DNA from: Anthoceros angustus
Taxonomy: Eukaryota > Plantae > Anthocerotophyta
Direction of reading: 5' to 3'
Assembly: GCA_010909165.1 (NCBI GenBank)
Contig: VJWM01000186.1
Coordinates: forward strand, 186,001-250,000
DNA length: 64,000 nucleotides
Shown here: piece by piece, positions 1 to 37,800 of the stretch
Numbering within the stretch: the stretch's first letter is position 1
How the letters are laid out: every line of letters starts with the position of its first letter
The notes under the pieces: generated by a model
What the model saw: the letters and a program-made list of their open reading frames with translations, nothing else
What the model was told of the DNA's origin: nothing
Database searches by the model: none
Position numbers and translations under genes: made by a program

Positions 1-99
1 AGCAGTGTTCTCAAGGGTCTTCTATACATGGTCTTTTCCAAGGTCTTCTCCATGTCTTTTTCCAAGGCTCCCCAATATGATGCGGGGCCACCCAATCTG

Positions 100-3150: not shown

Positions 3151-3400
3151 TTTTGGGTTTGTTCCTCCTCGGACTTCAGGGTAGATGGATTCCCCATCCC
3201 GCTTATTAATAACGTCTAGTCTTGGTATACTCGGTAGACTTTCTGAACTTTCTTCTACCAAATATGTACATAAAGGCGGGACTCTCTGTATCCACAATAT
3301 GGTCTTCCACTCCAATCGCCGGAGTAGGCTTCAGACATGAGGGGGGGAGCTAGTTGCCTTCGTCCCCGCTCATCAAACCCTGCACGTGAAGGCGACCGTC

Positions 3401-12814: not shown

Positions 12815-13734
12815 TCACGGAGTTTTGGTTCCTGAGCCTAATGCTTCATGCTGATGGGCTGGGGGTGGAGATCTCTTCCCGGGTGGCCAACTGTCTACCT
12901 CCTCCTGGTCCTTTGCTGCCATGGACGGCTCTCCTTCCACTACTCGGACCAAAGAAGCTTCTATCTTAGCTTCTTCTAGTTCCTCTTCCTTCAGATTTTC
13001 CTCCCTATGGTACAGGTGCACTAGGAAGGTGGAGACAAAGCTGATTTTGGCCTCCTCACTGATCAAATGATTCCTATGAGCCACCGCCTGCTCATAAAGA
13101 ATGCTCGCCCAATCTACCAACTTTCCCTTAGATATCTCATAGATCGTCATAAGGTGGGAATTGCCTATGTAGGTCTTCCTGGCTGCACAGATCAATCCCA
13201 GCCAAATCTTCGTGAAGAGATTGCACTTTCTCTCCTTGAACATAGATACTCGCCAGTCATTGCCAGGGGACCAAACTTCCTCCTTGGGTCGTACGAACAT
13301 TTCCATGGCCGCTTCTGGAATTAGATTCTTGGAAAACTGGGCGATGGGATGATTCCTCCTTTGTGCACCTCGGGTATCAAGTACGTTTGCTGGAAATGGC
13401 GCACCTTCCACATTGCGGGGTGACTTCGGACTGTTACATCCTCGGGCACCCTGGCTTCCCCTCTTGTGGCTCGCAACCGCCGCGCGCACTCTTGAACCAA
13501 TGCTGGGCTTGAAAAGTGCTATCCAGGCACCAAATATAACCACTCCATCTTCAATTCCTCAGCATATCGCTTGAAAGCATCCAGGTCTTGTGGTGAGATT
13601 TGAATGGGGCAGCAGTCGAACTCAAGAATGGGATGCTTTTTGCCTTTGCCTTGACTTGGGGGTGTGGGTGGCACAGTCCTGCTCCCATCCCCTTGAATTG
13701 GGGTGCCACCACCCGTCCTCACAATTCTCACCAT
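12815..13734 (-). pseudogene. Accessory ORF B (sense to pol), paralog of the ORF A N-terminal domain; one frameshift near 13520-13545
   Basis: MVRIVRTGGG..FDCCPIQISPQDLDAFKRYAEELKMEWLY then WRVSMFKERKCNLFTKIWLGLI..VDWASILYE..FVSTFLVHLY, which aligns by eye to ORF A. Confidence 0.65.
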
Positions 13735-15130: not shown

Positions 15131-18100
15131 TGAATGTTGCAGTCTTGCTTCCTGGCTATTTGTTTGTCTTCTACAGAGGCTGAATATGGACCCCTTTCAC
15201 AAGCAGCTAGGGAGATTATCTCGATTCGTTCATCTCTGCGAGGTTTGCAACCACTTTCATAGGGACCCACAAGACTATGGTACGACAACCAATTGGCCAT
15301 CGCGCCCTCAAAAGACCTGGTTTTTCATGCGGGTCTAAACATATTGAGATCACTCATCACTTCATCAGATAGTTAGCAGACACAGGTGAAGTCATGGTCG
15401 AATATGTCCCCAGCTATGTAGATGCTCTCATCAGATGTGCATTGTTGAAATCCTTGCTCCTTTAAGAAGGCATTGATCTTCTCATACCAAGCTCTAGACC
15501 CTTGCTTCAATCCATAGAGAGATTTCTTAAATTTGCATACCAAACTCTCATGGCCTTTTTCGATATACCCTTCAAGTTGCTCCATATAAATGTCCTCCTC
15601 CAAATTTCCATTGAGAAATGCAGTTTTTACATCCATATGATGAATCTCCAAATCATCAATTGCTCCCACTGCTAGTAAAGTCCTTATTGACACAAATTTG
15701 GCCACTGGAGTAAAGGTCTCATTGTAATCGATGCCTTGTTCTTGGCTATATCCATTCACCACCAATCTTGCCTTATATCTCTCCATTGCCTTATAGCTTC
15801 TTTCCATTGCTTTGCATCCTTCCCTTGTAGTGCTTCAGCTGTCGTTCTTAGTTCCCTCCCATATTCCATAGCAATGGATGCAAACTCTGGTCCTTCTCTC
15901 CAATCTCTTAGTGGACGATGCTCCCTTGTTGGATATCTCCTCGGAGGAAGAATTTCTACTCTCAAGGGTTCTTCCTCATTGTTTCTCTCGCTAGGGATCA
16001 TTTCATTCCCATCAATTGGAATGACGTCTTTTCCAATTGGTTCTTGAGGTATCACAACCTCACGAGCATCAACAATAAGAAATTTCTCGCTATCTATAGT
16101 CTCCGCCTCATGAAAAACCACATATCTACTTATGATGATGCGCCTAAATGCCTTATCATACAATCTATAGGCCTTTCTATCAATATCATAGCCCACAAAA
16201 TGCACTCCAATGCCTTCCCTTGAGCTTGCTCGACTTCTTTGGGTTTATGTGCAAAGGCTCTACACCCAAACACATGCGAGTGAGCAATAGAAGGCTTCCT
16301 CCCTAACCAGCATTCCTCCGGTGTCATATCCTCTAGTGATGCACTTGCACTTCTATTAGTTAGGTAGACAGCAATTGCAATGGCTTCCCCCCAAAACTCA
16401 TAGCCCAATTGTTGATGATGAAGCATGCTCCTAGCACATTCTACCAAAGTTCTATTTTTCCTTTCTGCAACTCCATTTTGCTGAGGAGTGTAAGGGCGAA
16501 AATTGTTGCATGATTCCGTGCTCCTTGCAAAAGTTTCAAATCCTTGGACATATACTCACCTCCATTGTCACTCCTTAAAACTTTTATCTTTCTACCAATT
16601 TGATTCTCCACAAGTGCTTTATACTCCTTGAACTTCGATAAACAGGCATCCTTGGATTTGAGGAAGTAAACCTTGGTATACCTTGACTTGTCATCTGTGA
16701 AAGTGAGGAAATACTTGGCCCCTCCTAGAGATGTGGTCTTCATGGGGCCACAGATGTCTGAGTGAATCAAATCTAGCACATGGTTAGCTCTACTTCCTCC
16801 CTTTGGAAATGGAAATCGATGTTGCTTTCCCATCATGCAACCTCTACAAATACCTATATCTTCCTCCTCTCCAAGCTCAAGTCCTCTTACCATCTTTTTC
16901 TTTTCCATGAGCTTGATGTTTTGAACTCCAAGATGTCCCAATCTTTGGTGCCACAATAGTAGCTTGTTGTTGTGCTCTTGTACCACATTTGCCTCCATTC
17001 TTGAGCTTGGCACCACAGTACTCCCACTTAAACAATACATCTTTCCAACCTTCACTCCTTGTGCTCTCACTTCTTCTTTTGCATTCGTGAAGGTCACTCC
17101 AGCTTCCTCAAACTCTCAACCCTTGAGAGGTAGCCACGCTAACGGAGAAGAGGTTTTTGCTCAGGCCTGGCACATAGAGGACCTTCTTTAACATCCCACG
17201 AATAGGCCCTTTAGGAGTGGTCATGGTTAGAAATACAACTCCTTCTCCCTCACATTTTTGAGCCGAATTATCACCCAAGTAAATGTTAGTTGCAGGAGTG
17301 GGTTTGAAAGAGTGAAACCATTCACGCCTATTGGTCATATGCTCCGAAGCTCCTGAATCGATATACCACCTGTCAGCTTCATTTGAGTGGTGATGTGTAC
17401 TCACAAAGGCCTCATCAAAGTCTTCAGCACAGTTGCTTTGAGGTCTTGCTTTCTCGTCCCTTTGCTTCTTGAAACAGTTCCTCGCAATGTGTCCAACCTT
17501 GCCACAGTAGTTGCAAGTTATGTTGGACCTTCTATATCCTCTGATTGAGAAGGACCTTCCCTAGCTTGATGGAACTTGAGTGTTCTTCCGAGGCTTTTGG
17601 CCACAAAAGCTGATTCCTCGATATCTTCCCTTTTCTCTTCTTTTTGTCTCTTCATGTAAGAGTCTGCTCACAAGAATCTCAAAAGTCAAAGTCTCTATTC
17701 TTGACTCCAAAGCCACGATCAAGTTGTTGTATGACTCTGGAAGACTTGCAAGAAGAGTCATCACCAAGTCATCATCTGACACAGGGGCTCCAACAGCTGC
17801 TAATTGTTGTGACAAACTCCTCACTTTGTCTACATGCTCAATGACACTATCATTCTCACCCATTTGAAGAGTGAAGAACCTTCTCCTCAAAAACAAGCGG
17901 TTCACAAGGCTCTTGTTCTCATACAGCGCCTCCAGCTTTTGCCAAGCTTCCCTTGCAGTCTTACAAGAAGTCACATGCATTAGTTGTGCATCTTCCAAAT
18001 TGAAGCAAATGGTTGCAAAAGCTTTGCCTGCATTCTCGTCCCACTTGGATTGTCGCTCCACTTCTATAGGGCACTGCTCAATTCCTGACACTATCCCCCA

Positions 18101-18206
18101 CAAGCCTTTCTCGGCCAACAGCATCTGCATCTTGAACTTCCACAAGTTGAAGTTGTTACCACCAAATTTGGAAATGACTTGTAGTGTCACCATGCCTTGG
18201 GTGTGT

Positions 18207-18218
18207 GGGCCCATAACC
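18207..18218 (-). promoter_or_regulatory. Primer-binding site GGTTATGGGCCC (half-tRNA-iMet type)
   Basis: Immediately follows the LTR end. Same sequence as the known tRNA-iMet-fragment PBS of Drosophila copia-type elements. Confidence 0.85.
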
Positions 18219-18563
18219 TGTTGAGATTGGAAGCTAGCCATGATTCAAGAGGGTCAAAAGTGTCAAGAAAGCAAGTGTTCAGAATTGCAAAACTAAGACC
18301 ACCTAAACAAGGCCTTAAAACACAAATGAAGAGCAACTTTGAGCAAACAACACAAAGATAATAGTCGAAGAGTTGAACCTACTATAGTTAGCTGGTCTCA
18401 CCCCTTTTTAAACTTTAAAAAGTGTCACTCACGTTTCCTACTCAATATGGGGTATATGTTTCCGATTTACCCACTTCTATACACTTATAGTATCTCAATC
18501 ACCTACATCTTTTACGCATAGTCATATCCATCTTAACAAACTCAGTAAGATGCATCCTCAACA
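18219..18563 (-). repeat. 5' LTR of copia element 1 (345 bp)
   Basis: TGTTGAGG..CTCAACA on -. Highly similar to 18754-19083 in inverted orientation. Confidence 0.9.
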
Positions 18564-19083
18564 AGGACAAAGCATATTGATATCCAACATCACTTTGTTC
18601 GTGAAAGGGTGAAATCTTTAAAGGTTGCATTTGAGTATTGCAAAACGGAGGATATGGCTGCAGATTTCTTGACCGAGGCTTTAAGCAAGTTCAAATTTGA
18701 GAATTGTAGAGCGGTAGTTGGATTAAGGCAAACTCAGGTGCGCTGAGTGGGAATGTTGAGGATGCAGCTTACTGAGTTTGTTAAGATGGATATGACTATG
18801 TGTAAAAGATGTAAGTGATTGAGCTTACTATCAGTGTATAGAAGTGGGTAAATGGGAAACATATACCCCATATTGAGTAGGAAACGTGAGTGACACTTTT
18901 TAGGGTTTAAAAAGGGGTGAGACCAGCTAGCCATAGCAGATTCAACTCTTTGACTATTGTCTTTGTGTTGTTTGCTCAAAGTTGCTCTTCATTTGTGTTT
19001 AAGGCCTCGTTTAGGTGGTCTTAGTTTTGCAATTCTGAACACTTCTGACCCTCTTGAAGCATGGCTAGCTTCTAATCTCAACA
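18564..19083 (+). mobile_element. Copia RNase H C-terminus + PPT + 3' LTR (18754-19083), inverted relative to copia element 1
   Basis: RTKHIDIQHHFVRERV..EDMAADFLTEALSK..*, then GAGTGGGAA, then TGTTGAGG..ATCTCAACA. Confidence 0.88.
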
Positions 19084-22000
19084 CTTTAATGTTTTGTACC
19101 CCATTGGCTCGGGGTAGATGGGTTTTCCCATCTTTTTTTTTTTATAAAGTCTCCAGCATGGTTATATAGTAGATTTGAATTCTCCATAAAATTCATACTT
19201 AGAATCCCGTCAGGTGGTAGATAAATACGACTCTATGTCTATAGTGGCAAATAATTAAGACTCTTGTGTCTCTTGTGTGTCCTCGAAGACTGAATTGTGG
19301 TAAAACACCATGAATGAAATCATAGATTATGGCTGAAAACTTCAAGCATAACGGGTGAAGGAGCATGGGTCATTCTTCTCATCTTTCATTATGCTTGTTA
19401 GCAAACGTTCATAGAGTGCCCACAATTGTTCGCAAAAAATTTGTGCTAAAGTTCCAGCAACTTACCCCTGAATACCATTTGTATATCCTGTAGATTGTTG
19501 TTGGAATCAGAAACTGTATAAATATGGGCGTTAGGGAGCATGCCTAGCAGTTAACGAGGAGCCACAACCTCCTCCAAGGCTTGACACAGTGTTGAGAAGG
19601 AGGAGGCATGTTAGTGAAGACCACCATAAGTAGCAGTAGGCAATGCTGTGTAAGCTTCTTTCCTTTGCTAGTTGTATGTTAATTGCTTATTGTCTTTGCT
19701 TTGTTGTCCTCTTCCAACAAGCACACATGGCCAGACAAAGACCCCCAGCGAGAGAGTGTGCGCACAGCAGCCCTCTAGGAAGGGCTGCCACATTGGAAGG
19801 TGAAGCTCCCTTTCACGGGTCAGGGTTCGCTGTAAGTTTACAAGCCATGGTGTGGAGTTAACACAATGAAATGGCCCAGTTGCTACGGAACGGTGTGGAA
19901 GCAAACAGAATGGCCTGGGGCCCGTCACGGTACGGTAGGTAGAGTTATGGGATCACATGACCGGGACACTTCCACTTAGAGTAGTGCTGGCAATGGGTTA
20001 CAGAGTGGAGAGCATGCTAGCATGAAGTAAGACAGGCATACCAGCTTGGTAAATATATTATCCCAGAGCTTGACACAGTCGAGGTCTCTTGTCTTTGTAA
20101 TCCTCTTCATTTTTTTTAGCGGAATTTTGAGAATTTGTAGAAATATAACAAGAGTTGCACAAAGTCCTCGAGTGGGAGTTAGGGGTCCATAATAAACGGA
20201 ACCGAAGACCCAATACAACTCCACCTAGCGGGAATACGAGCAGCAGAAGAGAAAATTGAAAAGAAAAGGAAACGTGCAACCTACTTGAGGGTGCACGTGT
20301 CTCAGAATCACTTCGACAAGCCTTCAGTCTTCACAGAAGGAGTAGGGGCGTTCTGTGTGAGCTGGATCTCAATGGTGAGTTCGTGAAGATAGTCCAACTC
20401 AAAGGGACATGCCGGCCGAGTCCCATCCTCCCCCTGAAGAGCCAAATGCCTTGATTGATGTGGTCTTTCAGGCCGGCCATCTGGATTTTCGACACCATCC
20501 CGGCCTGGGCACCTTGGAGAATTATGGAGGAAAGGTGCCATGCGTAATGCACTCTTCATGTTGCTATCAGTTATGTGTGACAATTTGTTATCAAAGCTTG
20601 GTTGAAGGAAAATGCGGTGCAAGCCTTAGGGAACGCCAAGCCACCAGAAGAGGAACACCCATTCCTGAACAACCGTCGGCGCTTTCCCGCCCTTTCTCGA
20701 CAAGGATTGCTAACCGTTGGGAGGCAGAGAGATGTTTGGAGAGAGAACAAGCGCTATTTACAGAGTTAACCACAGAACCTCTGGTCCGGTTGCTCGAGAA
20801 CTTGGTCGGTTTGCTTGCATTGGGACAACGATACCGAGAGCAAGTACAAGGGGACTGGTTGGTGTGCGGATTGCCTAGGTAGAGGGCGTGGTTGTAGCCA
20901 GAGCCAAGGTGGACGCCGGCACAAAAAGGGGCCTATCGGATTTTGTGTGCTGATTTGGAAAAGGCCTTGGGGTTGGCTGAAAAAGGGTCGGAGAGGTATC
21001 GCCACAATCCGTGGGAAGTCGTGAGGTGATAAGGAGGTGCTAGTGATTGCAAATGTGGAGGCCGCTCAATGTTTTATACAGGGAGTACCTAGTCCTTACC
21101 CTCACACCCCACGTCTCTAGGCATTTGTGGATGTTTTGATCGACAATAACTTCCTTTCCACCTACTTCATGAATAGCAGCATCGTACTCTACTCTCCATC
21201 CTGGCTACTTATGTACATAATCATATTGTGGGTGGGGACGATAACCGAAGTCTTGTTTGTACACCGGTCATTTGGAAGTAGCAAGTGGTATCCAATCCAA
21301 GAACCAGCCTGGTACCTTGCCACTGCCGAATGCAAAAAATTGTTTATTCTCGCTGACAAAGGTGCAGAAAGGTGGCTCTGCTACAACGGCACCTGGGACA
21401 CACCAGCGGCAGTCAGATTCATCGAAGGACAAGGGCTCGGGGAGTGGCTCATTGAACCCTAGTGGAGGTGCCGGGACGAGTACTACGGGGCGGCGAATCG
21501 CTTGTTCGGTCATCTTGGAACAATGGTTCAAGGGGAGCTCTGTGGACTACGACATGGTTACACGACGCCCTCCTAATGTGATTTTGTGTGGATTTTTTTT
21601 TTTTTTTCAGGTTCCATGTGTCATATGAGGAGTGCAAACTGGACTAATAAGGTTAGCAAATAACCAAATAAGGGTCTGGACAGCCGGAGCAGAGCGTGGG
21701 ATGGCATAGACAGCCGGGGGCATCATGGGGATTGCCTGTTTGTGACGAGAGAGCAGTCAGGATGAGGCAAGGCTTTGTCCAGACGGTGCGGACATTGGAT
21801 GGAAGGCACCAACGGCCGGATGAGTCTGCAAAAGACTTGTCTTGGAGATCTTGACAACTAGAAAGGCGGGTCGTCACAAGAAGTCGTGCCCGTCTTGCAT
21901 GCCTATCCAGCGCGGCCGTCCATCGCACCTGTGGGGCACCCGTCTTACATGCCTATTCCAGCTCGGCCATCTATCGTGCATGTCTGTCGCGGCCTTTTGG

Positions 22001-22515
22001 CGGGAACCATTTTGAGGAGGGGACACGTGGCTTTCAAGTGTTAGAAGAGTGCTCTTTCCAATCTAGTGGGGTTGTCACAGCTACCATTTGGGGATGAAGG
22101 GTGGCTTTGGGAAACCCTAACGGACAGTGGCTGACAGAAAAGAGGTCTTTTTAGGGATTGGCATGAGGATAGAGTTTGAAGCTCAAGCTGTGTGGCTGCC
22201 AAAGGGCCAGCAAATCTGACTTCTTTGCATAAGGAGGCCCTTGGCCAAGGATTTGCCCAAGATGCAACTCCCGAGGTGGTTGCTAGCAAGGAGAATAGCC
22301 AGGAATTAGAGATTTTGGAGGGGCCCCAACATATTTTGGGAGATGTGCACTGTGCAGCTTTACCCTGCAGCTTTAGCTGCTCTTTGTGGCAAGCCAAGGA
22401 GCATGGTGTATAAATTGAGGGCTTCACCCCTAAATTAATGTTCTTCCAAGCGTTGTCTAAAGATCACTCCGCTGGGTTGTGGGGTGTAGGCTTTCCCTCT
22501 TTTGTGTCACTGTAA

Positions 22516-23040
22516 CGGGAACATGTAAGGAAAGGATATGAACAGCTCAGAAGCTGGTTGGGCAATGAGTTTATCATTGATGGAGCGCAGACAGGATCGT
22601 ATGCTCATCGTATTCGGAGTTTCTGGATGAACATAGTCAGTGTGGATGTACTCAGGCAACATCGCAACTTGACTGTACCAAAAAAACGATGGGTAGATGA
22701 GATACTGGAAGAAGGTCGGAAGTCGCAACAAGTTCGCAAGATGGACCGATTGCCACACTATCCTGTCAACATGGTGGGTGAACCAAGGCGAGCATGGCCC
22801 ACACTGGTCAGCACGGCTCAGTCATACGCTTTTCGATGAGGAGGAGATGGTATGATTCTGAATTGGAAGGGTAATGAAATCAGGGAACCTCTGATTTCAG
22901 AACGCGAGCAAGCTATGGGCTTTGATGCAGGCAGTACTGCCATGCATGGTGTTTCTGAGGCCAATCGTTGCAAGCTGATGGGACAGGCTTTTGATCCAAA
23001 CTGCTTGCAGTGGTTGATCAACGTAGGGCTAGCAACGCAA
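22516..23040 (+). pseudogene. C-terminal half of a C5 cytosine DNA methyltransferase at the N-terminus of the gypsy pol
   Basis: LGNEFIIDGAQTGSYAHRIRSFWMN (motif VIII-like), WPTLVS, REPLISEREQAMGFDAGST (motif IX) and RCKLMGQAFDPNCLQWL (motif X-like). One in-frame stop at 22837, then the same frame runs into RT. Motifs I, IV and VI are not seen. Confidence 0.75.
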
Positions 23041-25835
23041 GTAGTCACATGTCGTTCAGGAGGCAAAGGGCATCTACAAGTGTCGGGCGGAAAGGTGGAT
23101 CGACCATCCAACGTTGTCAAGGAAAGTTGCGCTGCAGTTGATGTAAAGGCAAGCTGTAAGGACGTCAGTGAGAAGGAATCAAAGGCCAAACATACTTGGC
23201 AGATATGTGGAGACTTGGCTGGGGAGGATCAGCTGAGAATTACCAGCATGTTATAAAGGAATCGACAAGCTTTCGCATTCAACTAGGAGGAGTTGAGAAG
23301 ATATGATTGCATAAAATTCAGAATTGAGACCACCACGACTGAGCCAGTATTCAGAAGAAGACACAAACTCAGTCCCTCAGAATGGGACATTGTAGACAAG
23401 CGATGCAAAGAGTTGGAGGCAGCCAGTTTGATCAGGAAGTCGACTTCTCGGTATGCTGCGGCCACAGTGTTGCCTCTTCAAAAAAGATGAAAATGGCGAG
23501 TGGAAGGATAGGCACATGTGTGGCGATTATCGAGCCCTGAATGAGGTGAATCCCATGGAACGATACCCGATGCCTACTCCTGATGAGATCTTTGATGCCA
23601 TTGGGGAAGCCACCTATTTTACCACGTTAGATTTTCGATCCGGGTTCAACCAATTTGTCATTGAGGAAGGTGACAAATGCAAAACAGCTTTTTGGGGTAA
23701 GGAGCTGTGGGAGTGGGAGAATATGCCGTTCGGACTCAAGAATGCGTCCATCTATTTTCATGAGGGTAGCTGACTTGGAGTTGCAAGGGCTAACATTCGT
23801 GAAATGCTATATCGATGACATTATGGTATTCAGCAACAGCTGGAGGAGCATCTAGAACATCTAGAGATTTTGCTGCAAAGATTATCAAGCTCGGGGCTGA
23901 AGGCCCACTCGAAGAAATGCAAGTTTGCGTACAAGGAAATCGAATACTTGGGACATAAGATTGTGCCGGGAGGAGTACAGCCCCAATTGGCCAAGGTACA
24001 GGCTGTCAATCTTATGCCAAGGCCCAAGGACGTTGCTGCCTTAAGAGCTTTTCTAGGACTTGTTAATTATTATCGGAGGTCCATCAGGAACATGAGCGGT
24101 ACATGTAGGGTGTTATATGAACTACTGAAGAAGGGCACTCAATGGCATTGGGAACAGGAGCATGAGCAGGCATGGAATGATTTGAAGGAGCAACTAGCAG
24201 AAAGACCAGTGCTCATAAGGCCCAACTTTGATAAACCATTCATATTATATACGGATTGGAGTGCAGCGGGCATAGGTGCTGTGCTTGTTCAAACAGACCA
24301 AAGTGGTGAGGAACGAGTCGTGGCATACGCAAGTAGATCTAACAATTCAGCTGAGGCAAACTACTCCTCCTATGAAGGGGAATGTTTGGCTATAGTGTGG
24401 GCCGTCTTGCATTTTCGTGTGTATTTGTTTGGGCGTAGTTTTCAGCTGGTGGTGATCAACGAGGCTAGCAACGCAAGTAGTCACATGTCGAGGCAAAGGG
24501 CATCTACAAGTGTCGGGCGGAAAGGTGGATCGACCATCCAACGTTGTCAAGGAAAGTGTTGCTTGATGTAAAGGCAAAGGACGCCGGAGAAGGAATCAAA
24601 GGCCAAACATACTTGGCAGATATGTGGAGACTTGGCTGGGGAGGATCAGATGAGAATTACCAGCATGTTATAAAGGAATCGACAAGCTTTCGCATTCAAC
24701 TAGGAGGAGTTGAGAAGATATGATTGCATAAAATTCAGAATTGAGACCACCACGACTGAGCCAGTATTCAGAAGAAGACACAAACTCAGTCCCTCAGAAT
24801 GGGACATTGTAGACAAGCGATGCAAAGAGTTGGAGGCAGCTTTGATCGTGAAGTCGACTTCTCAGATGTCAGAAGTTGTTGCCTCTTCAAAAAGATGAAA
24901 ATGGCGAGTGGAAGGATAGGCACATGTGTGGCGATTATCGAGCCTCGAATGAGGTGAATCCATGGAACGACACCGATGCCTACTCGATGAGATCTTTGAT
25001 GCCATTGGGGAAGCCACCTATTTTACCACGTTAGATTTTCGATCCGGGTTCAACCAATTTGTCATTGAGGAAGGTGACAAATGCAAAACAGCTTTTTGGG
25101 GTCAAACCTGTGGAGTGGGAGAATATGCCGTCGGACTCAAGAATGCGTCCATCTATTTTCGGAGGGTAGCTGACTTGGAGTTGCTAACATTCGTGAAATG
25201 CTATATCGATGACATTATGGTATTCAAGCCGAGGAGCATCTAGAACATCTAGAGATTTTGCTGCAAAGATTATCAAGCTCGGGCTGAAGGCCCACTCAAG
25301 AAATGCAAGTTGCAAGGAATCGAATACTTGGGACATAAGATTGTGCCGGAGGAGTACAGCCCCAATTGGCCAAGGTACAGGCTGTCAATCTTATGCCAAG
25401 GCCCAAGGACGTTGCTGCCTTAAGAGCTTTTCTAGGACTTGTTAATTATTATCTGAGGTCCATCGTGAACATGAGTACATGTAGGTGTTATATGAACCAG
25501 AAGAAGGGCACTCAATGGCATTGGGAACAGGAGCATGAGCAGGCATGGAATGATTTGAAGGAGCAACTAGCAGAAAGACCAGTGCTCATAAGGCCCAACT
25601 TTGATAAACCATTCATATTATATACTGGATTGGAGTGCAGCATATAGGTGCTGTGGCTTGTTCAAACAGCACCAAAGTGGTGAGGAACGAGTCGTGGCAT
25701 ACGCAAGTAGATCTAACAATTCAGCCGAGGCAAACTACTCCTCCTATGAAGGGGAATGTTTGGCTATAGTGTGGGCCGTCTTGCATTTTCGTGTGTATTT
25801 GTTTGGGCGTAGTTTTCAGCTGGTGACTGATCAAC
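23015..25835 (+). repeat. Tandem duplication of the RT-RH segment (~1.4 kb x2)
   Basis: Copy 1 is 23015-24452; copy 2 is 24453-25835 and indel-rich. TGATCAAC microhomology at the junction. Confidence 0.9.
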
Positions 25836-26510
25836 AGCCGTTGCACTGGTTTATGACAAACATGAAGTTGAGCGAGAAGCTTGCTAGGTGGGCGCTATTG
25901 CTTTCAGAGTATGATATGCAGATAGTGCACAGGGCAGGCAAGGTGCATCATAATGCTGATGGATTCAGCAGGAATCCGATGATGAGTGAGAAGGATGCCA
26001 CTGGGGCACGACAAGACTTTGGAATAGTGAAATCTATGCCCAGCGTGTTCATGGCGCTCATGGCCACAATGCAAGAAGCTAGCGGGTGGCTTGGTGACAC
26101 TGTCCGAGATATTTGGAAACTTGAGCGAGCTGTACAATTGTTGCAGACCGGACGGGTGGATGGTTTGAATGACGCTGCAACCCAAAAGTTGCAAGATAGA
26201 GTAGCGAGATGCACCTGGAAAGATGGCAAGATGTTCATTGAAGATCATGGTGTGATGAAAGAGGTGCCACCTGTTAATGAGCGAGAGAAAATATTGACTA
26301 AGGTGCATAAAACCCTTGGACACTTTGGGGTGAAGAGAACACGCTATATGCTAAGACATAGTTATTTCTGGTCAGGCATGAGTTCAGATGTTGAGAGAGT
26401 AGTGGCCAAGTGTGCCGGGATCAAGGGAATGAATTTCAAGGGGAATTTCAGGCCCTGCTTGATAGAAGTTTGATCGATCACCGACGGACGTCAAGGGATC
26501 ATCCGCAAGC

Positions 26511-28932
26511 GGATGGACTAGCGGAGAGACTGGTGCAGACGTTCAAGGATTCACTTCGTAAATACTATATGGAGGTTGAACCCAATTGTTGGGATGAATT
26601 ACTTCCTTATGTGGCGTTGGGTTACAGGATCAGTGTACAAGCAGCGTTGGGCAGTTTCAGTCCTTATTTTATCATGTTTGGAAGGAATGCAGTGCTGCCT
26701 AACATTGTCGCAGACACATATTCTAAACCGGTGAACTGGGCCAGAAATCCGAGTGAATGCTTTCAGCAGTTGCAGAACAGGGCCTAGTTGTTGCAGAGGG
26801 TCATTCCAATGGCCATGGATAATTTGGCTATTGCCCAGCACCGAGATCAGCTTAGGTATGCATTTACACGTGGAGGTTCTTAGAAACCCAAGGCAAGAAA
26901 GTTTGAAGTAGGGGACTTTGTATACCTTGAGCATAGACCTTCAGGTACACTCGATGTGAGCACAGAAAGATTGATTTTGAGAGTGGTAGCTATAGGAGAA
27001 CAAGGAGTGGTTGAGCTAGAAGGACAAGATGGGCGTCGTTGCAAGGAACACATGCATTACCTTGCACCGTGTCACTTACCCAATTTGGATACCAGAATAC
27101 AGCCACAGGCTTGGAAGCCGCCGATTGATTTACCATGTGAACTTTGTGGTCATATGACGGAGCCTGAGATGCTTTTGTGTGACCGATGCAACAAAGGGTA
27201 TCATAGTTTTTGCCTACGGCCACCTTTGAAAATGATCCCGGAAGGGGACTGGTTCTGTCAAAGATGTTCGACACGAGTGAATGATCAAAAGGAAAATGAG
27301 GCACCAGGTGGAGATCAAGCAGGTTCAGTGCGGTTAAACCCCAACTTACCATAAGCAAATTAGTCCGAATAAAGCACGCCCGCTTGTGGTCAGTGTCAAA
27401 CAGCAAGGTGCAAACGCGAGCGAAGCGCAATGCTGAGCACACAAGCAGGAGAGGGCAACGAGACCAGGCAGCATAGAAGTAGTGGTTTACCATGTGCTTT
27501 TAGGATCACATATAGAAGAGCAAGCACGATGATTCAAGAAAGATTTGGTAGCAGTGCAGATTGGGTCTCAACTGAAGCTAGAGCTGCGTGCGCGACAGGA
27601 GGGCAAGTCACGGGCGATTACATCTGTGGTGGGAGGTTCCCGGGACCCCCGGAACCCTCAGCCCTGTAGCGGCCACACTTATCCTTGTTGGTTCGTACAG
27701 TGGGTTTCGTTCCCACGAAGGGTGGGGAGCCCTTCCCGCGGATGGACTAGCGGAGAGACGTGACGCTCAAGGATTCACTTCAAATACTATATGGAGGTTG
27801 AACCCAATTGTTGGGATGAATTACTTCCTTATGTGGCGTTGGGTTACAGGATCGGTGTACAAGCAGCGTTAGGCAGTTTCAGTCCTTATTTTATCATGTT
27901 TGGAAGGAATGCTTGCCTAACATTGTCGCGAACATATTCTAAACCGTGAACTGGGCCGAAATCAGTGAATGCTTTCAGCAGCGTAATGGGCCTAGTTGTT
28001 GCAGAGGGTCATTCCAATGGCCATGGATAATTTGGCTATTGCCCAGCACCGAGATCAGCTTAGGTATGCATTTACAGTGGAGGTTCTTAGAAACCCAAGG
28101 CAAGAAAGTTTGAAGTAGGGGACTTTGTATACCTTGAGCATAGACCTTCGTGTACACTGTGAGCATGAAAGATTGATTTTGAGAGTGGTAGCTATAGGAG
28201 AACAAGGAGTGGTTGAGCTAGAAGGACAAGATGCGCCATGGTAAGGAACACATGCATTACCTTGCACCGTGTCACTTACCCAATTTGGATACCGAATACA
28301 GCCCAGGCTTGGAAGCGCCGATTGATTTACCATGTGAACTTTGTGGTCATATGACGGAGCCTGAGATGCTTTTGTGTGACCGATGCAACAAAGGGTATCA
28401 TAGTTTTTGCCTCGGCCACCTTTGAAAATGATCCGGGGGACCGGTTCTCTGCCAAAGATGTTCGACACGAGTGAATGATCAAAAGGAAAATGAGGCACGG
28501 TGGAGATCAAGGTTCGGGCATGGTTAAACCCCAACTTACCATAAGCAAATTAGTCCGAATAAAGCACACGCCCGCTTGTGGTCGTCAAACAAGGTGCAAA
28601 CGCGAGCGAAGCGCAATGCTGAGCACACAAGCAGGAGAGGGCAACGAGACCAGGCAGCATAGAAGTAGTGGTTTACCATGTGCTTTTAGGATCACATATA
28701 GAAGAGCAAGCACGATGATTCAAGAAAGATTTGGTAGCAGTGCAGATTGGGTCTCAACTGAAGCTAGAGCTGCGTGCGCGACAGGAGGGCAAGTCACGGG
28801 CGATTACATCTGTGGTGGGAGGTTCCCGGGACCCCCGGAACCCTCAGCCGTATGCCACACTTATCCCACGCTGGTCTTGACAAGAGGTTTCTGCCCCACG
28901 AAGGAGTGGGGAGCCCTTCCCGCATGGATGGA
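26511..28932 (+). repeat. Tandem duplication of the IN-PHD-3' segment (~1.2 kb x2)
   Basis: Copy 1 is 26511-27739; copy 2 starts at 27740 and is indel-rich. GGATGGA microhomology. Confidence 0.9.
27136..27267 (+). CDS. PHD finger at the integrase C-terminus
   Basis: CELCGHMTEPEMLLCDRCNKGYHSFCLRPPLKMIPEGDWFCQRC is a canonical C4HC3, in frame with the integrase tail (ORF 26956-27354). A decayed duplicate lies at ~28330-28460. Confidence 0.92.
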
Positions 28933-29310
28933 GGTGCGCCCTCCACGGTGACCTCTCGACTCTCTGACCTCCCGTCACAGGCGCCCGTGACTAGCGCCCC
29001 TCCTACTAGCGCCACCTCGGGGTGACACTAGGTAAGTCACACTACCCTCGGCGATGACTCGGTGGCGGACCTCGTCGCGAGAGGCCCAATCTGCTGGCGA
29101 CCCACAGGGACCCCAAATCACCGTCTGGTGGGCAATCCTCCCACCAGCGCAAATCCTACACTTCCTAAGACCCTTCTCTTGACAAATTTGGGGCCTCCCC
29201 TCAAGCTCTTATCCTGACTTGAAATTTCACCTTCCTCTCTTCTAGATTGCTCTCACACTTTTCTTCCTCCTCTCTTCTCTTTTGTCTTTTCTCTTTTCTC
29301 TCTTGCTCCT

Positions 29311-29315
<5 letters not shown>

Positions 29316-29350
<35 letters not shown>
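29316..29350. repeat. (CT)n microsatellite
   Basis: Direct reading. It lies in a pyrimidine-rich tract that reads as ER repeats on -. Confidence 0.95.
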
Positions 29351-29356
<6 letters not shown>

Positions 29357-31812
29357 TTTCTCTCTTTCTCCTCTCTTCTCCTCTCTTCTCTAATCTACCT
29401 CTTCCACTCTTCCTAGCTTCTTCTCCAGTCAACTAGGCGCCCCTCACAGCCTCCAGCCGCCTCGGATCATAGGCGGTGCCCTCACGGACCTAGGCCGGAC
29501 ATTTGGCTGCAGGTCGTCGCTGGATTTTGCTAGGGTCTTCCCTCACCAGCCGCATCGTCTGCAACCACAATGCTCCTCACCAGCCTGCGCCCGTCTGCAA
29601 CCACAATGCGCTCCTCACGCTCGAACACTCCCACTGCTACCTCAACAAAGAAAGGTTTGGGGCCCCGCCCTCACCACAGTCACCGCACCTCAAGACCCTA
29701 CGGACACCATGCACCCTCACCACGGTGCGCGCTTGTGTAGCAAACAAGCACACACATGTCGAGAGCAAGGCATGACATTTTATTATAGAGCTCCTCCCCT
29801 CTTATAGGAGCTCCCCAAACCCTAGCATTAATTAAGTCCGTGGGGTAGGTGGGGTTGCTTCACGGTTTTAAGTAGGTGGCCTCTTAAAGGTTCTTAACCT
29901 ACCTCCTAACAATCCCACTAACCCCTAGGGTCTTAATGACCCCTTCACTCCCCTACCAACTATCTCCTACTTCTTCTTGGCGTTGGCATGGCGGGCGCCC
30001 AACCACCCATCTTCCTCCTCTTGGCTTGGGGGTGTCCCCGTCAGGATCTCTCTCACTCGTCGTCGCGGACGGGAACCTCACACTTCTCGTGATGCTGATT
30101 GATGAAGTGGAGCACGCCCCTCTTGCAGGCGCTCTTGTAGAGCAGCCTCTGTAACCACCTCCGCCCCCAATTACCTCAGGCGGTTGGGTGTTGGTGCAAC
30201 TCACATCCTGAGACACCCCACCAACTCTACTGCTGGAAATCTCTTCCTCTTCCATTGGCTCCTCCACAGCCTTGCATCCATTTCACTCTCCAAGTCACAG
30301 ATCTCGAGGCGGTCTGAATTCCTTCAAAATCTCCATCGTCATCGTGGGGACCCAACAACTTCCTTGTCAACAAGGCGCATCTCCTTGGCAAACTTGTTGA
30401 CCTAGCATGTAAGTGGACTGCATCTCCGGCCCTTCAAACAAATCTCATCAAATTCCTCGAGGCCACTCTCCACAGGCTATCTTGCCATAGCATCCCTCTT
30501 GAGAGTCACCTCACTCAAGCAGGCTGTAGTGACATTTTTGGTGCATCTCTCTTCCATGCCTCCGGTATCCCTTTGCCATGCATAGTCGGCTGGGCGTTGC
30601 TTCTGACGACCCGACATCACGATGCATCATTTTCCTCCGGTGGGCTACCTCTTCCTTCCACCGTTGGTCGACCTCCGTTGCTTGCTTTGTGAGCTCCTCA
30701 CGCTCGAACACTCCATGCTACCTCAACAAAGAAAGGTTTGGGGCCCCGCCTGCCACAGTCACCGCACCTCAAGACCCTACCGGACACCATGCACCCTCAC
30801 GGTTGGCACGCACGCTTGTGTAGCAAACAAGCACACCTGGTCGGAGAGCAAGGCATGACATTTTATTATGGGAGCTCCTCCCCTCTTATAGGAGCTCCCC
30901 AAACCCTAGCATTAATTAAGTGCAGTGGGGTAGGTGGGGTTGCTTCACGTTTTAAGTAGGTGGCCTCTTAAAGGTTCTTAACCTACCTCCTAACAATCCC
31001 ACTAACCCCTAGGGTCTTAATGACCCATTTCCCCTACCAACTATTCTCCTACTTCTTCTTGGGCGTTGGCATGGCGGGCGCCCAACCACCCATCTTCCTC
31101 CTCTTGCTGGGGGATCCCCGTCAGGATCTCTCCGTCGTCGGGGCCTCACCTCTCGGCGTGCGTTGATGAAGCTGGGCAGCCCCCTCTTGCAGGCGCTCTT
31201 GTAGAGCAGCCTCTGTAACCACCTCCGCCCCCAATTACCTCAAGGCGGTTGGGTGTTGGTGCAACTCCTGTCCTGCCAGACACCCCCACCAACCCTACCG
31301 GCTTGCTGGAAATCTCCTCCTCTTCCATTGGCTCCTCCCAAACTAAGCCTTCTGCATCCATTTCACTCTCCAAGTCCTGAATCTCCGAAGCTGAGGGTCG
31401 CAATTCCTCCAAAATCTCCCTGTCGTCATCATGGGGACCCAGCAACTTCCTCGTCAACAAGGAGCGCATCTCCTTGGCAAACTTGTTGACCCTGGCATGT
31501 AGGTGGACTTGCATCTCCTGTCCCTTCAAACAAATCTCATCAAAGTCCTCAGGCTACTCTCCTGAGGCTAACTTGCCATAAAGCATCCCTCTCAGCGTCA
31601 CCTCACTCAAGCAGGCATGTGGTGACATTTTCGGCTGCATCTCTTCCATGCCTCCGGTATCCCTGTTGCCATGCATAGTCGGCTGGGCGTTGCTTCTGAC
31701 GACCAGCATGCATCATTTTCCTCCGGTGGCCACTCTTCCTTCCACCGTTGGTCGACCTCCGTTGCTTGCTTTGTGAGCTCCTCACGTTCCTTGCTCCATG
31801 TGGCTCCTTCCT

Positions 31813-31822
<10 letters not shown>

Positions 31823-31857
<35 letters not shown>
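31823..31857. repeat. (CT)n microsatellite (duplicated copy)
   Basis: Direct reading. Confidence 0.95.
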
Positions 31858-31861
<4 letters not shown>

Positions 31862-34800
31862 CTCTCTTTTCTCCTCTCTTCTCCTCTCTTCTCTAATCTA
31901 CCTCTTCCACTCTTCCTAGCTAACTTCTCATTACAGGCGCCCTCCAGCCTCCACCAGCCTCGGATCATAGGCGGTGCCCTCACGGACCTAGGCAGACATT
32001 TGGCTGCAGCGTCCGCGTGCTGGTTTGCTAGGGACCTCCCTCCGACTGCCGCGTCACGCGACCACAATGCGCTCCTCACGCTCGAACACTCCCACTGCTA
32101 CCTCAACAAAGAAAGGTTTGGGGCCCCGCCCACTGTCACCCCTCAAGACCCTACGGACACCATGCACCCTCACCGGTCGCACGCTTGTGTAGCAAACAAG
32201 CACACACAGTCGGGAGCAAGGCATGACATTTTATTATGGGAGCTCCTCCCCTCTTATAGGAGCTCCCCAAACCCTAGCATTAATTAAGTCTGGGGTAGGT
32301 GGGGTTGCTTACGGTTTTAAGTAGGTGGCCTCTTAAAGGTTCTTAACCTACCTCCTAACAATCCCACTAACCCCTAGGGTCTTAATGACCCCTTCACTCC
32401 CCTACCAACTATTCTCTTCTTCTTGGGCGTTGGCATGGCGGGCGCCCAACCACCGCCTTCCTCCTCTTGGGGGGAGTGTCCCCGTCCGATCTCTCTCACT
32501 CGTCGTCTGACGGGGCCTCACACACTGTCTCGGCGATCTTGTATGATGAAGTGGGCGTACCCCTCTTGCAGGCGCTCTTGTAGAGCAGCCTCTCTGTAAC
32601 CACCATCGCCAATTACCTCAGGCGGTTGGGTGTTAGTGTCACTCTGCCAGACACCCCACCAACTCTACGGCTGCTGGAAATCTCTTCCTCTTCCATTGGC
32701 TCCTCCCAAACTAAGCCGCATCCACTCTCCAAGTCCCGAATCTCTCAGGCAGGGTGTCTTCCAAAATCTGTCATCATCGTGGGGACCCAACAACTTCCTT
32801 GTCAACAAGGCGCATCTCCTTGGCAAACTTGTTGACCCTGGCATGTAGGTGGACCTGCATCTCCTGTCCCTTCAAACAAATCTCATCAAATTCCTCAGGC
32901 CACTCTCCTGAGGCTAACTTGCTTCGCAAAGCATCCCTCTCAAGCGTCACCTCACTCAAACGAAGCTGTAAGGTAACATTTTCGGCTGCATCTCTCTTCC
33001 ATGCCTCCAGTATCCCTTGTTGCCATGCATAGTCAGCCTGGAAGCGTTGCTTCCTGACGACCAGCATGCGATGCATCATTTTCCTCCGGTGGGCTACCTC
33101 TTCCTTCCACCGTTGGTGGTCACCTCCGTTGCTTGCTTCTCCTCACTCCTTGCTCCATGTGGCTGTCCTTCCTCCGGCTCCTTGAGCTTGGCCTCCGATT
33201 CTTCATTCTTGGCTTGGCCTCGGCCTCCCAGGGCAGTCTTGAATCGTCCCCCATTCTCCTCTTCTCGGCTGAAGAATGAAATTCTTCTTGCCACTCCTTC
33301 CCACCAGACGTCTCCTCAATTTTACGATTGAGGTAGCCACTTCCTTCATTCGCTCCCTACTTTCTTGTCTCGGCCTGTTCTTCAATCTTCTTTGAGCCCC
33401 AACCTTCTCTCGGGTCAACTAGGCGCCTTTCGCGCCATCTCCTTGATAGCCTTGCTATCCTTCTCCCCCACTGTGGCAATCGGGCGTCTGACGGCTCTCA
33501 CCTCCAACTCCTCTACTTCCTGTAAGGCCTGCTTCACTAATGGAGTGTCAATTAGGCAGGATGGTGTGAGATCCTTCAAAGCCTTTGTCTTCTCATTTCC
33601 CCTCACAGGTTGACTCTGCCTTTCTCTTGGTGGCGGTCTCTCCACTCGACTAATGATGTTGGGTGGGAACTCACTTGACTCGGTCATCTCACAGGTGGTT
33701 AGTTCCACCACCCTGCTCCATGGGGGTTGCCTCCTGTACACATGGTGGCACTGCCACCTCTTCCTCTTGTGCCTTGTCTCCCCACAGGGCGGCACTTCTC
33801 CTTCCTTGGCGACGGGGTGGTCTCATCATCCAAGATCACCACACGGTGAAGCACTCCCTTGCTCCACCTTGGGTTCCTCCTCCGCCTTCTTCACCTTCTT
33901 GGAGAGGGACCCTGTCTGTCCTCGGAGGGACCACTTCAAGCGGTGGTAAGACTCCTCCAGCTCTTCTTTGTAAGTAACCCATGTGCCCCCTGCGCACAAG
34001 GTAAGTACTCAAATGGTTGTGTCTCGCCCCTCATTATCCACAATGTTTGGCCTCGTGACTTGTCTCGGTGATGCTCATAGGCCTTGACATGGTTGTCCCA
34101 GTCGGTGAGCTCCTTGCTTCAACTTCCACATGAAATGAAAGAATGCCTTTGAAGTGGGTGGTTGTGACTGGTCAGCCCCAAAACTATCCTTGTAAAAGTT
34201 TCCACTTGAGGTCAGCAATCTTATCATCCTCCAGCCTTGAGCTTGGCCTCCGCTTCATTTTTGGCTTGGGCAGCCTCGCCCCTCCGACGCCTTCAACTGT
34301 CCCTATTCTCGCTCTTCTCACCAATGAGAGTTGCTGCCACTCCTTCCACATCGATGCCTCCTCAATTTTCTCTGATTGAGGTAGCCACTTCCTTCATTCG
34401 CTCCCTACTTTCTTGTCTCGCCTGTCTTCAATCTTGCGAGCCCCAACCTTCTCTCCAGTCAACTAGGCGCCCTTCGCCATCCATCTCGATAGCCTTGCTA
34501 TCCTTCTCCCACCGATCAGAGGCACGCCACCGTCCCGACGCGCCTCACCTCCAACTCTACTCTCGTAAGGCCTTCACTAGTGGAGTGTCAATTAGCCGAT
34601 GATGGTCAGCAGATCCTTCAAAGCCTTTGTCTTCTCATTCCCTCCCGTCACCGACCGCCTTTCTCGCTGGGCCTCCACTCCCGACTAATGATATTGGGTG
34701 GGACTCGTGACGGCCATCTCCCGGGTGGGTTAGTTCCACCATCCCGCCCATATGGGTTGCCTCTCAGACACATGGTGGCACCGCCACCTTCCTTTGTGCC

Positions 34801-37800
34801 ACCGCCTCCTCGGAGACAACACTTCTCCTTCCTCAAGGCGACTGGGTGGTCTCATCATCCAAGACCACCACCTGAGGTGAAGCACTCCCTTGCTCCACCT
34901 TGGGTTCCTCCTCTGCCTTCTTCACCTTCTTCGGGAGAGGGACCCCTGTACTATGCCTCAGAGGGACCACTTCAAACGGCTGGTAAGACTCCTCTAGCTC
35001 CTCTTTTGTAAGTAACCCATGTGCCGCCCACAACTGCACCAAGTAAGTGCTCAAATGGTTGTGTCTCGCTCCTTCATTGTCCACAATATTTGGCCTCAGC
35101 AGCTTGTCTCGGTGATGCTCATAGGCCATCAACATGGCTGTCCCCCAGTCAGGCTGAGCTCCTTGCTTCAACTTCCACATGAAATGAAGGAACGCGCTGC
35201 TGAAGTAGGTGGTTCGCTGACAGCAGGTCAGCCCCAACACTATCCTTGTAAAAGTTTCCACTTGAGGTACAATCTTATCATCCTCCAGCCTTGAGCTTGG
35301 CCTCCGCTTCATTTTGGCTTGGGCAGCCTCGCCCCTCCGACGCCTTCAACTGTCCCTATTCTCGCTCTTCTCACCAATGAGAGTTGCTGCCACTCCTTCC
35401 ACATCGATGCCTCCTCAATTTTCTCTGATTGAGGGTAGCCACTTCCTTCATTCGCTCCCTACTTTCTTGTCTCGCCTGTCTTCAATCTTGCCGAGCCCCA
35501 ACCTTCTCTCCAGTCAACTAGGCGCCCTTCGCCATCCATCTCGATAGCCTTGCTATCCTTCTCCCACCGATCAGAGGCACGCCACCGTCCCGAGCGCCTC
35601 ACCTCCAACTCCTCTACTTCCTGTAAGGCCTGCTTCACTAGTGGAGTGTCAATTAGCTGACAGATGGTCAGCAGATCCTTCAAAGCCTTAGTCTTCTCAT
35701 TCCCTCCCGTCACCGACCGCCTTTCTCGCTGGGCCTCCACTCCTGACTAATGATATTGGGTGGGACTCCTGTGACTCGGTCATCTCCTCGGGTGGGTTAG
35801 TTCCACCATCCCGCCCATATGGGTTGCCTCTCAGACACATGGTGGCACCGCCACCTTCCTTTGTGCCACTGCCTCCTCGGAGACAACACTTCTCCTTCCT
35901 CAAGGCGACTGGGTGGTCTCATCATCCAAGATCACCACCGAGGTGAAGCACTCCTTGCTCCACCTTGGGTTCCTCCTCCGCCTTCTTCACCTTCTTCGGG
36001 AGAGGGACCCCTGTACTGCCCCGAGGGACCACTTCAAACGGCTGGTAAGACTCCTCCAGCTTCTTAAGTAACCCATGTGCCGCCCACAACCGCAAGTAAG
36101 TGCTCAAATGGTTGTGTCTCGCCCTTCATTGTCCACAATGTTTGGCCTCAGCTTTGTCCTTGATGCTCATAGGCCATCAACATGGCTGTCCCCCCAGCCG
36201 AGCTCCTGCTTCAACTTCCACATGAAATGAAAGAACGCGCTGCTGAAGTAGGTGGTTCGCTGACAGCAGGTCAGCCCCAGACTATCCTTGTAAAAAGTTT
36301 CCACTTGAGGTCAGCAATCTTATCTGTCCTCCAGCCATTTCGCGTCTTCGCGTCCACCCCTCCGATGAGCATGCTGAGAGCTTCCTCGGGAAGGTCAGCT
36401 ACCACTGCCCTTTTTCCATCTTCATTCCTCTCGGTGGGAGCCACACCATCACTTTCGCTCTCTAGCCTCCCATATACCTTACGAATGTGCTGGACAGTCC
36501 ATCCCTTCGGATCTGTCCGCACGTTCCTCTCCTCCATGTTCTCCGTTTCTCCCTCCGTCAGTTCGAGCTGCCTGTAGCAAGATTCAACCAACTCCACATT
36601 AGAATAGGCCCAGTGCCTATCATACGCCCATTGGAGCTGCACATTGTCGTCAGCAGCCCACAGTCGAAAGTCCCACAAGTCTATGGAGGAGACTTGCACG
36701 CTGAAACATAAAAACCCCGGCCCCTCCTTCTCGGCTTGATCTTTTCGGCTTCTCTTCACACTTCTCCTTCTTCTTCTCCTTGCATGGGCTCGCTCCCTCC
36801 TTCTGCTGTTCTTGCGCCGCCTTCCTCCTCCAGGCGTGCTTCCGTCTCCAACGTCTCTCCGCTATGCGATCGACTTCTTCTCCAAAATTCGGCTCCAGTC
36901 CTCCCTATCGGCTCAAATGGTTGTGTCTCGCCCTTCATTGTCCACAATGTTTGGCCTCAGCTTTGTCCTTGATGCTCATAGGCCATCAACATGGCTGTCC
37001 CCCCAGCCGAGCTCCTGCTTCAACTTCCACATGAAATGAAAGAATGCTCAAGTAGGTGGTTCACGACGCAGTCAGCCCCAAAGACTATCCTTGTAAAAGT
37101 TTCCACTTGAGGTCAGCAATCTTATCCGCCCTCCACCATTTCGCCTTCGCATCCACCCTCCGATGAGCATGCCGAGAGCTTCCTGGAAGGTCACCACCTT
37201 TTCCATCTTCATTCCTCCTGGGAGCCACACCATCACTTTCGCCTCTAGCCTCCCATATACCTTACGAATGTGCTGGATACCATCCCTTCTGACCGCCTCG
37301 CACGCCCTCTCCTCCATGTTCTCCGCTTTCTCCTCCGCTCGAATGCCCGTAAAGATTCAACCAACTCCACATTAGAATAGGCCTGCCTATCATACGCCCA
37401 TTGAGCTGCACACGAGCCCCAAAAGTCCCACAAGTCTATGGAGGAGACTTTTGCATCAAAACACCCCGGCCCCTCCTTCTCGGCTTGATCTTTTCGGCTG
37501 CTCTTTTTCTTCTCCTCACGACATGTGCTCGCCTCCTCCGGCCAACGCCTCACAGACCTCCAACTGCTGCGTCTTCATCTCCAACGCCTCCCGCCGTATT
37601 CCCGACTTCTTCCAAAATTCGGCTCCAGTCCTCCCTATCAGCTCAAATGAACTGATCACTCCCCGACTACTCACATATATAGTGTGATGGGGGATTTTCC
37701 AAAACCCAAAGGCCAAGGACAAAACCCCTACTGCCCGAAGGCTAAGGACTTTTTCCCCCGTTGGCAAACGTTAGAAATTCCTCAACCACCGAAGGCCAAG

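Follow-up and report, generated by a model that had tools for sequence, protein, structure and literature searches.

Cytosine DNA methyltransferases (DNMTs) encoded within the Pol frame of retrotransposons were described in PMC5890265. According to the available text of that report, KnitGypsy-Dnmt3 of Klebsormidium nitens carries its DNMT in Pol and has DIRS-like repeats, and de novo CG methylation by a retrotransposon DNMT has been demonstrated, in yeast, only for the SymbioDIRS-Dnmt3 enzymes of the dinoflagellate Symbiodinium. EpiLTRs of Euglena gracilis and Cymbomonas tetramitiformis have a DNMT that is sister to DNMT4, together with an adenine methyltransferase and a chromodomain reader; the accessible part of the preprint treats the streptophyte Gypsy-DNMT3 elements as a separate acquisition (bioRxiv 10.64898/2026.05.21.726589). 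PHD and chromodomains are widespread in retrotransposons, as stated in the consulted part of PMC6673714. Here we analysed a 64,000-nucleotide stretch of Anthoceros angustus DNA (contig VJWM01000186.1, positions 186,001 to 250,000; the window). From position 22516 it holds a broken Ty3/gypsy element that is of the Gypsy-DNMT3 kind known since 2018 and whose pol frame, in all probability, includes the carboxy-terminal half of a DNMT3-type domain. The available text of PMC12344493 refers back to the 2018 Gypsy-Dnmt3 report, and the one supplement searched gave no match; no description of the family was found in the accessible portions of PMC6317226, PMC11982613, PMC6453930 and PMC3441728.

As far as the accessible descriptions go, the window element resembles KnitGypsy-Dnmt3 in joining a Ty3/gypsy pol to a Dnmt3-type domain in a streptophyte host, and the Klebsormidium relatives P0043 and P0063 fall in the same broad reverse transcriptase (RT) clade. 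It differs in that the catalytic half and both ends are missing and the identity to P0043 over RT and RNase H (RH) is only 53%. The A-coding-B-A-B repeats given for KnitGypsy-Dnmt3 were not found in the window, in which the element has lost its 5' end and carries a duplicated 3' end. With SymbioDIRS-Dnmt3 it shares a DNMT3-type domain in the Pol frame, but SymbioDIRS is a DIRS element with a tyrosine recombinase, whereas the window has a DDE integrase (IN) with a PHD finger and a gypsy RT. The EpiLTRs, too, combine a cytosine methyltransferase with a chromatin-reading domain in a long terminal repeat (LTR) element; in contrast to their DNMT4 sister, chromodomain and adenine methyltransferase, the window has a DNMT3-type domain and a PHD. 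As in chromoviruses and CopiaMBD, a chromatin-reading module sits on the integration machinery, where it was proposed to steer insertion (PMC6673714, consulted in part), but the reader is a PHD and the family also carries a DNMT.

The methyltransferase half in the pol frame

The earlier note on this DNA had read methyltransferase motifs VIII, IX and X in the frame that leads into RT. All three were located on the plus strand in a single frame, within 22516-23034. This frame opens after a stop at 22513-22515 and continues into the pre-RT region, with in-frame stops at 22837, 23254 and 23284 and a frame change near 23480. The features of the element are as follows.

22516-23034, plus strand: carboxy-terminal half of a DNMT3-type C5 methyltransferase domain, from immediately behind motif VI to beyond motif X, assigned with a profile of 11 relatives; stop at 22837
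22594-22632, plus strand: motif VIII, GSYAHRIRSFWMN; the family profile aligns the site to SAAHRARYFWGN of DNMT3A
22900-22938, plus strand: motif IX region, EREQAMGFDAGST, with EREQAMGF; the family profile aligns the site to EMERVFGF of DNMT3A
22975-22995, plus strand: motif X, LMGQAFD; the family profile aligns the site to LLGRSWS of DNMT3A
23035-23485, plus strand: linker and pre-RT region in the frame of the DNMT half, about 150 codons; stops at 23254 and 23284, both also in the duplicate copy
23486-23959, plus strand: Ty3/gypsy RT core with YIDD, interrupted by frame changes (Pfam RVT_1, local profile, motif)
24227-24454, plus strand: RNase H, first copy, ending where the duplication begins (Pfam, local profile)
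24449-25835, plus strand: tandem duplicate of 23010-24460 with many small deletions, 93% identity; likely an assembly artefact
25625-25912, plus strand: RNase H, second copy, continuing into the single-copy part (Pfam, local profile)
26270-26709, plus strand: integrase, zinc-binding start and C-terminal part of the core (profile positions 1-50, then 134-237; motifs)
27133-27270, plus strand: PHD finger with intact C4HC3 at the C-terminal end of the integrase, in a frame that runs to 27354 (Pfam PHD, E 8e-11; best solved relative the ATXR5 PHD, E 3e-15)
27738-28932, plus strand: tandem duplicate of 26509-27746 (integrase end, PHD and 3' tail), 92% identity; likely an assembly artefact

The retrotransposon part was readily assigned. 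RVT_1, RT_RNaseH, Integrase_H2C2 and PHD were confirmed by Pfam, with rve_3 as a weak match (E 0.06), and the order RT, RNase H, integrase with an RVT_1-type RT is that of Ty3/gypsy. The DNMT half lies inside the gypsy Pol frame, since it shares the frame of the pre-RT region and is collinear with the relatives P0010, P0046, P0055 and L013. The linker between DNMT and RT is 100-328 residues long in 21 continuous relatives.

The identity of the DNMT half was first obscured by blank searches. Pfam gave no match on it even at E<=1, neither to PF00145, which the earlier note had named as a check, nor to any other family. Two word-based homolog searches scored 0 of 243 and 0 of 23 candidates, and a single-sequence search of solved structures returned only two weak, unrelated matches. 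The word-based result reflects low sensitivity, because a full HMMER scan of 1.84 billion proteins with the same stretch recovered 603 at E<=0.001, of which 338 reached 1e-10. The blank for PF00145, although literally a failed check, is misleading because the matches of this family on intact relatives mostly span model positions of about 48-160, the half that is missing here; P0121 and P0125, relatives with the C-terminal half only, likewise score nothing in Pfam. Domain-based counts consequently under-report the family.

A profile was then built from the domains of 11 intact relatives (334 positions) and run against the six frames of the window. Its sole match was the DNMT half, at profile positions 157-330, with 172 bits and E 5e-54. 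As a control, 500 shuffled versions and one reversed version were scored; none exceeded 3.9 bits, against 182 bits for the real stretch. The stretch is 37-40% identical to the intact relatives. When a profile of 24 family sequences was compared with solved structures, DNMT3A came first (E 3e-24), then DNMT3C and DNMT3B, followed by DRM-type enzymes (5e-15 to 2e-12), HhaI (2e-10) and the tRNA enzyme DNMT2 (E 1e-6). Through this family profile the three motifs of the window line up with motifs VIII, IX and X of DNMT3A. The predicted structure of the relative P0131 (predicted local distance difference test score 86.7) matched DNMT3A and DNMT3B in Foldseek with E 1e-15; in the DNMT tree, P0131 falls among relatives of the other domain layout (see below), and the fold evidence applies at the level of the family, not to the subfamily of the window. 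The intact relatives are thus akin to DNMT3 in sequence, fold and unrearranged motif order, and the half in the window aligns to their profile. We are nearly certain that 22516-23034 encodes the C-terminal half of a DNMT3-type methyltransferase in a green-plant Ty3/gypsy pol, and the earlier reading of a gypsy element with a C5 methyltransferase remnant in its pol and a PHD finger is borne out.

State of the copy and of the assembly

The copy had been called dead in the earlier note, with stop codons and without motifs I, IV and VI. A profile search found none of these three motifs in any of the six frames of the 64-kb window, and the three stops and the missing catalytic half agree with that description unless the locus is mis-assembled. 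Motif I with its FxG, the motif IV cysteine and the motif VI glutamate, by which a catalytic DNMT3 is recognised, are not present. As written, the copy cannot methylate, since it lacks the S-adenosylmethionine (SAM)-binding motif I, the catalytic cysteine and the glutamate.

Homology begins sharply at 22516, about nine codons past the expected position of motif VI. No trace of gag, protease (PR) or the N-terminal half of the DNMT was found anywhere in the 64 kb. When 300 relatives were compared with the window, only copia integrase cores and one marginal match (E 0.009) were obtained outside the element. Nine upstream reading frames and four more contained no Pfam family, leaving 19083-22515 without assignment, and no terminal repeats were seen in either 3' tail or upstream. 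At about 26410, the integrase core lacks around 87 residues, among them the last zinc-binding cysteine and the first catalytic aspartate; relative to the second open reading frame (ORF2) of L013, residues 660 to 748 are skipped.

That the true locus is less damaged than its assembled form has a chance only a little short of even. The duplications, several of the frame changes and perhaps the junction at 22516 would then be errors of a noisy long-read assembly, which is compatible with the identification of the element given above. The copies 23010-24460 and 24449-25835 differ by 21 substitutions (11 transitions and 10 transversions) and by 42 gaps, of which the second copy has 36, and 26509-27746 and 27738-28932 by 27 substitutions, with transitions about equal to transversions, and 37 gaps, of which 30 are in the second copy. 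Altogether six adjacent duplicate pairs of unrelated sequence lie across the window and differ largely by gaps of 1-6 bases; the four outside the element are similarly gap-rich. The two LTRs of a copia element in the window show a different pattern (12 transitions, 5 transversions and 3 gap openings). The frame changes near 23760 and 23840 are not the same in the two copies of the first duplication. Such gap-rich duplicates are likely the signature of uncorrected long reads, so that some of the frame changes may be read errors. On the other side, the stops at 23254 and 23284 occur in both duplicate copies and are probably real, and the sharp start of homology and the absence of gag, protease and the N-terminal half from all 64 kb also speak against it. 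A search of sequencing runs listed one DNA run, sharing 7% of the window's words, and no RNA run. In the DNA run, 21 contigs matched RT and a short part of the DNMT and none crossed 22516; 17 of the 21 are less than 90% alike to the window. We conclude that the element is a 5'-truncated, broken copy, dead or mis-assembled, and without function as written, and that the window as a whole resembles long-read sequence assembled without polishing. Adjacent duplications of 0.3-2 kb with small-gap differences are found in the window at 29305-41266, 46279-46839 and 54629-56562.

Relatives, domain layouts and a readthrough-type stop

Relatives were collected with two queries. A stop-free piece of RT and RNase H gave 245 proteins at E<=1e-40, of which the best 120 were considered. 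Fifteen of them align to 22516-23040, and when these 15 and five others were run against Pfam, PF00145 was found in 12 of the 15, in 11 above the curated cut-off. For the DNMT query, residues and layouts were counted among the best 150 of the 603 relatives. RT, RNase H, integrase or PHD is present in the same chain in 77; in the other 73, many of them short fragments, the DNMT stands alone. The motif IV cysteine is kept in all 102 relatives that cover it, the motif VI glutamate in 120 of 121 and the RxR of motif VIII in 139 of 146; motif I reads FxG in 65 of 82 and CxG in 15.

Named DNMT-bearing relatives come from the liverworts Marchantia polymorpha (P0050, P0071, P0125) and Calypogeia fissa (P0124), the desmid Closterium (P0207, P0231, P0159) and the chlorophyte Scenedesmus (P0153), and RT relatives also from Klebsormidium and Coleochaete. 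The kinship to the DNMT-bearing gypsy elements of charophytes that the earlier note had proposed is supported. A protease was found in the intact relatives L013, P0055 and P0134, and a zinc knuckle in the latter two. Scans of viral contigs yielded nothing with P0030 and otherwise 22 loci with an RT alignment, none with a DNMT.

Two domain layouts occur. The DNMT precedes RT, as in the window, in 7 of the best 150 DNMT matches and lies between RNase H and integrase in 70; among 111 fetched loci, 11 had a DNMT, two in the first layout and nine in the second. The latter (L001-L006, L008, L009 and L011) have the order RT-RH-DNMT-IN-PHD behind an overlapping gag-protease frame. In a FastTree tree of RT and RNase H (172 rows; matches covering fewer than 170 residues left out), the second layout forms one branch of 45 rows with a support of 100, including P0153 of Scenedesmus. 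The sister of the window is P0003 (95), and the 128-row clade at whose edge the window lies (89) holds all DNMT-bearing rows and also Klebsormidium rows, including P0043 and P0063. In the FastTree tree of 166 DNMT halves, from which matches below 140 residues were left out, the window groups with L013, Marchantia and Calypogeia in a set of 17 rows (89) and lies in none of the starred sets. The trees point to kinship without showing in which direction change went, and we assign the window to the wider Gypsy-DNMT3 group rather than to the Klebsormidium family.

The earlier note had regarded intact family members without the DNMT as a refutation, and protein chains without it do exist. Of the best 120 RT relatives, 26 have RT-RH-IN-PHD but lack a DNMT in the same protein, and 22 of these start 97-207 residues ahead of RT, within the length of the linker between DNMT and RT. 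The DNA of L013, however, carries the DNMT upstream. It has the order PR-DNMT-RT-RH-IN-PHD, the same as the window, and encodes Gag-PR-DNMT (3-3488) and RT-RH-IN-PHD (3492-6632) in one frame with a single TAG between them. The TAG and the following CAA TCA (3489-3497) fit the type I readthrough consensus UAG-CAR-YYA, as given in the accessible text of PMC3542737; at even base use this would occur at one stop by chance about once in 512. In the 226-member cluster of the L013 ORF2, the one cluster that was read, 9 of the 15 members listed start at the same place, just behind the stop. The absence of the DNMT from a predicted protein thus does not mean its absence from the element. In the window, 13 matches to TRR-CARYYA were found, none of them between DNMT and RT, and by its sequence the element is of the continuous type without readthrough.

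L013 (record CADCWO010000201.1) is a contig of a cyanobacterial metagenome-assembled genome, with ORF2 annotated as a cyanobacterial protein; a eukaryote-type retrotransposon in such a genome is likely a contamination of the bin. The A-coding-B-A-B repeats were not seen in L013, which is assembled as a circle. The locus L012 holds a decayed DNMT-RT-RH-IN-PHD element with repeats (1272-1576, 12577-13098) in the order A ... B-A-B, as the KnitGypsy-Dnmt3 legend describes.

As far as these sequences allow, we give an even chance to the view that Gypsy-DNMT3 is a large, old green-plant clade reaching from chlorophytes to liverworts. It would have a catalytically intact DNMT3 domain and a PHD-bearing integrase, with the DNMT at two places in pol, and in one subfamily the DNMT would be made at Gag level, with a leaky UAG-CARYYA readthrough for RT and integrase and many methyltransferases per particle. 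DNMT3-bearing gypsy elements of liverworts, a desmid or chlorophytes, the two layouts and the readthrough stop were not found in print, in a literature coverage that leaves out most subscription papers and some figures and supplements. New here are the host range (Marchantia, Calypogeia, Closterium and Scenedesmus), the two domain orders and the readthrough-type stop; the window copy itself adds little.

Possible roles of the methyltransferase, and other features of the window

We consider it rather probable that the methyltransferase of the family marks the new complementary DNA (cDNA) of its own element. By analogy with the general biology of LTR retrotransposons, the DNMT would enter the virus-like particle within the polyprotein, and cleavage by the protease would free it and leave it beside the new cDNA. 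It could then methylate cytosines on the cDNA, either ahead of integration or in the course of it, and the new copy would thereby arrive pre-marked like host chromatin. The PHD finger of the integrase may bind histone H3 tails without methylation at lysine 4 (K4) and steer insertion away from active promoters. Its best solved relatives are the fingers of ATXR5, CHD4, KMT2C, KDM5B and KDM5A, most of which read unmethylated H3K4, and in chromoviruses it is the chromodomains that are proposed to steer integration. With its position at the C-terminus of the integrase and these relatives, the PHD more likely steers integration than guides the DNMT, from which it is separated by about 1,000 residues in intact relatives. 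A writer and a reader acting together, as in the earlier note, would be conjecture, as the PHD sits on the integrase and cleavage would likely separate the two. With intact copies such as L013, the self-methylation of retrotransposon cDNA would become directly testable in a land-plant-like system.

Several observations speak against this picture. The earlier note had stated that the gypsy DNMTs of charophytes methylate CG de novo; this does not hold, as PMC5890265, in its available text, shows CG activity only for SymbioDIRS-Dnmt3, and KnitGypsy-Dnmt3 gave no methylation in yeast, which its authors called inconclusive. The observed/expected ratio of CG is 0.57 in the window element against 0.27 and 0.50 in two copia elements, and 0.77 in L013. 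The element is thus not more CpG-poor than its neighbours, and no compositional trace of extra CG self-methylation is seen. Motif IV reads E-C-Q in 57 of the 102 covering relatives among P0121-P0270 and P-C-Q in 34; an acidic residue before the catalytic cysteine is unusual for C5 methyltransferases. The trees are FastTree trees only, with the window at the edge of the RT clade and in no starred DNMT group. The intact relatives could serve as templates for the activity test left inconclusive for Klebsormidium.

The enzyme might instead act after or apart from replication, methylating the integrated copy, its flanks or host DNA and damping host defence or its own expression, which we hold to be unlikely. 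The conserved catalytic residues of the relatives would suit such a role, as would L013, whose DNMT in the Gag frame ahead of the readthrough-type stop would yield far more enzyme than one cDNA needs. A host enzyme, moss DNMT3b, is reported to carry out de novo CG and CHH methylation in heterochromatin (accessible text of PMC6453930). However, although its place in pol changes between two positions, the DNMT remains part of the packaged polyprotein, as would suit a task inside the particle, and the methylome of K. nitens is ordinary and plant-like, as far as the available text of PMC5890265 describes it.

Still less probable is that the domain owes its conservation to the binding of nucleic acid or SAM, or to RNA methylation, and that DNA methylation is not its function. 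The inactivity of the Klebsormidium enzyme in yeast, the glutamate for proline at motif IV in the 57 of 102 relatives and the lack of extra CpG loss are consistent with this, but the same assay in yeast was also unsuccessful with human DNMT3B (PMC5890265, available text). Moreover, the catalytic cysteine, glutamate and arginine are nearly invariant across proteins that are less than 50% identical, and the fold and the best sequence matches are those of the DNA-acting DNMT3, with DNMT2 far behind. A chance run of motifs, or a fragment of a host gene adjoining a gypsy element, would explain the blank PF00145, word-based and single-sequence structure searches, but it is rejected as virtually impossible by the 603 relatives, the profile match with its shuffle control, and the frame, order and spacing shared with collinear intact elements, including L013.

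Outside the DNMT-bearing element, a copia element lies on the minus strand at 15373-19083, with one LTR (18219-18563) facing an inverted LTR copy (18754-19083); between them is what we take to be an RNase H end. From its motifs, 50381-54259 (minus strand) is presumably a second, broken copia-like element, and a fragment at 953-1723 (plus strand) would appear to resemble a non-LTR reverse transcriptase. A host gene with a bromodomain was found at 3341-6896 (plus strand), for which the nearest atlas clusters are mostly Streptophyta; upstream of it is, presumably, a Myb-like exon, judged from its motif. The multi-exon gene at 58571-63800 (minus strand) has a PHD-like exon and is assumed by us to resemble plant NIPBL/SCC2. 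A minisatellite with six copies of a 33-base unit is located at 57260-57529.

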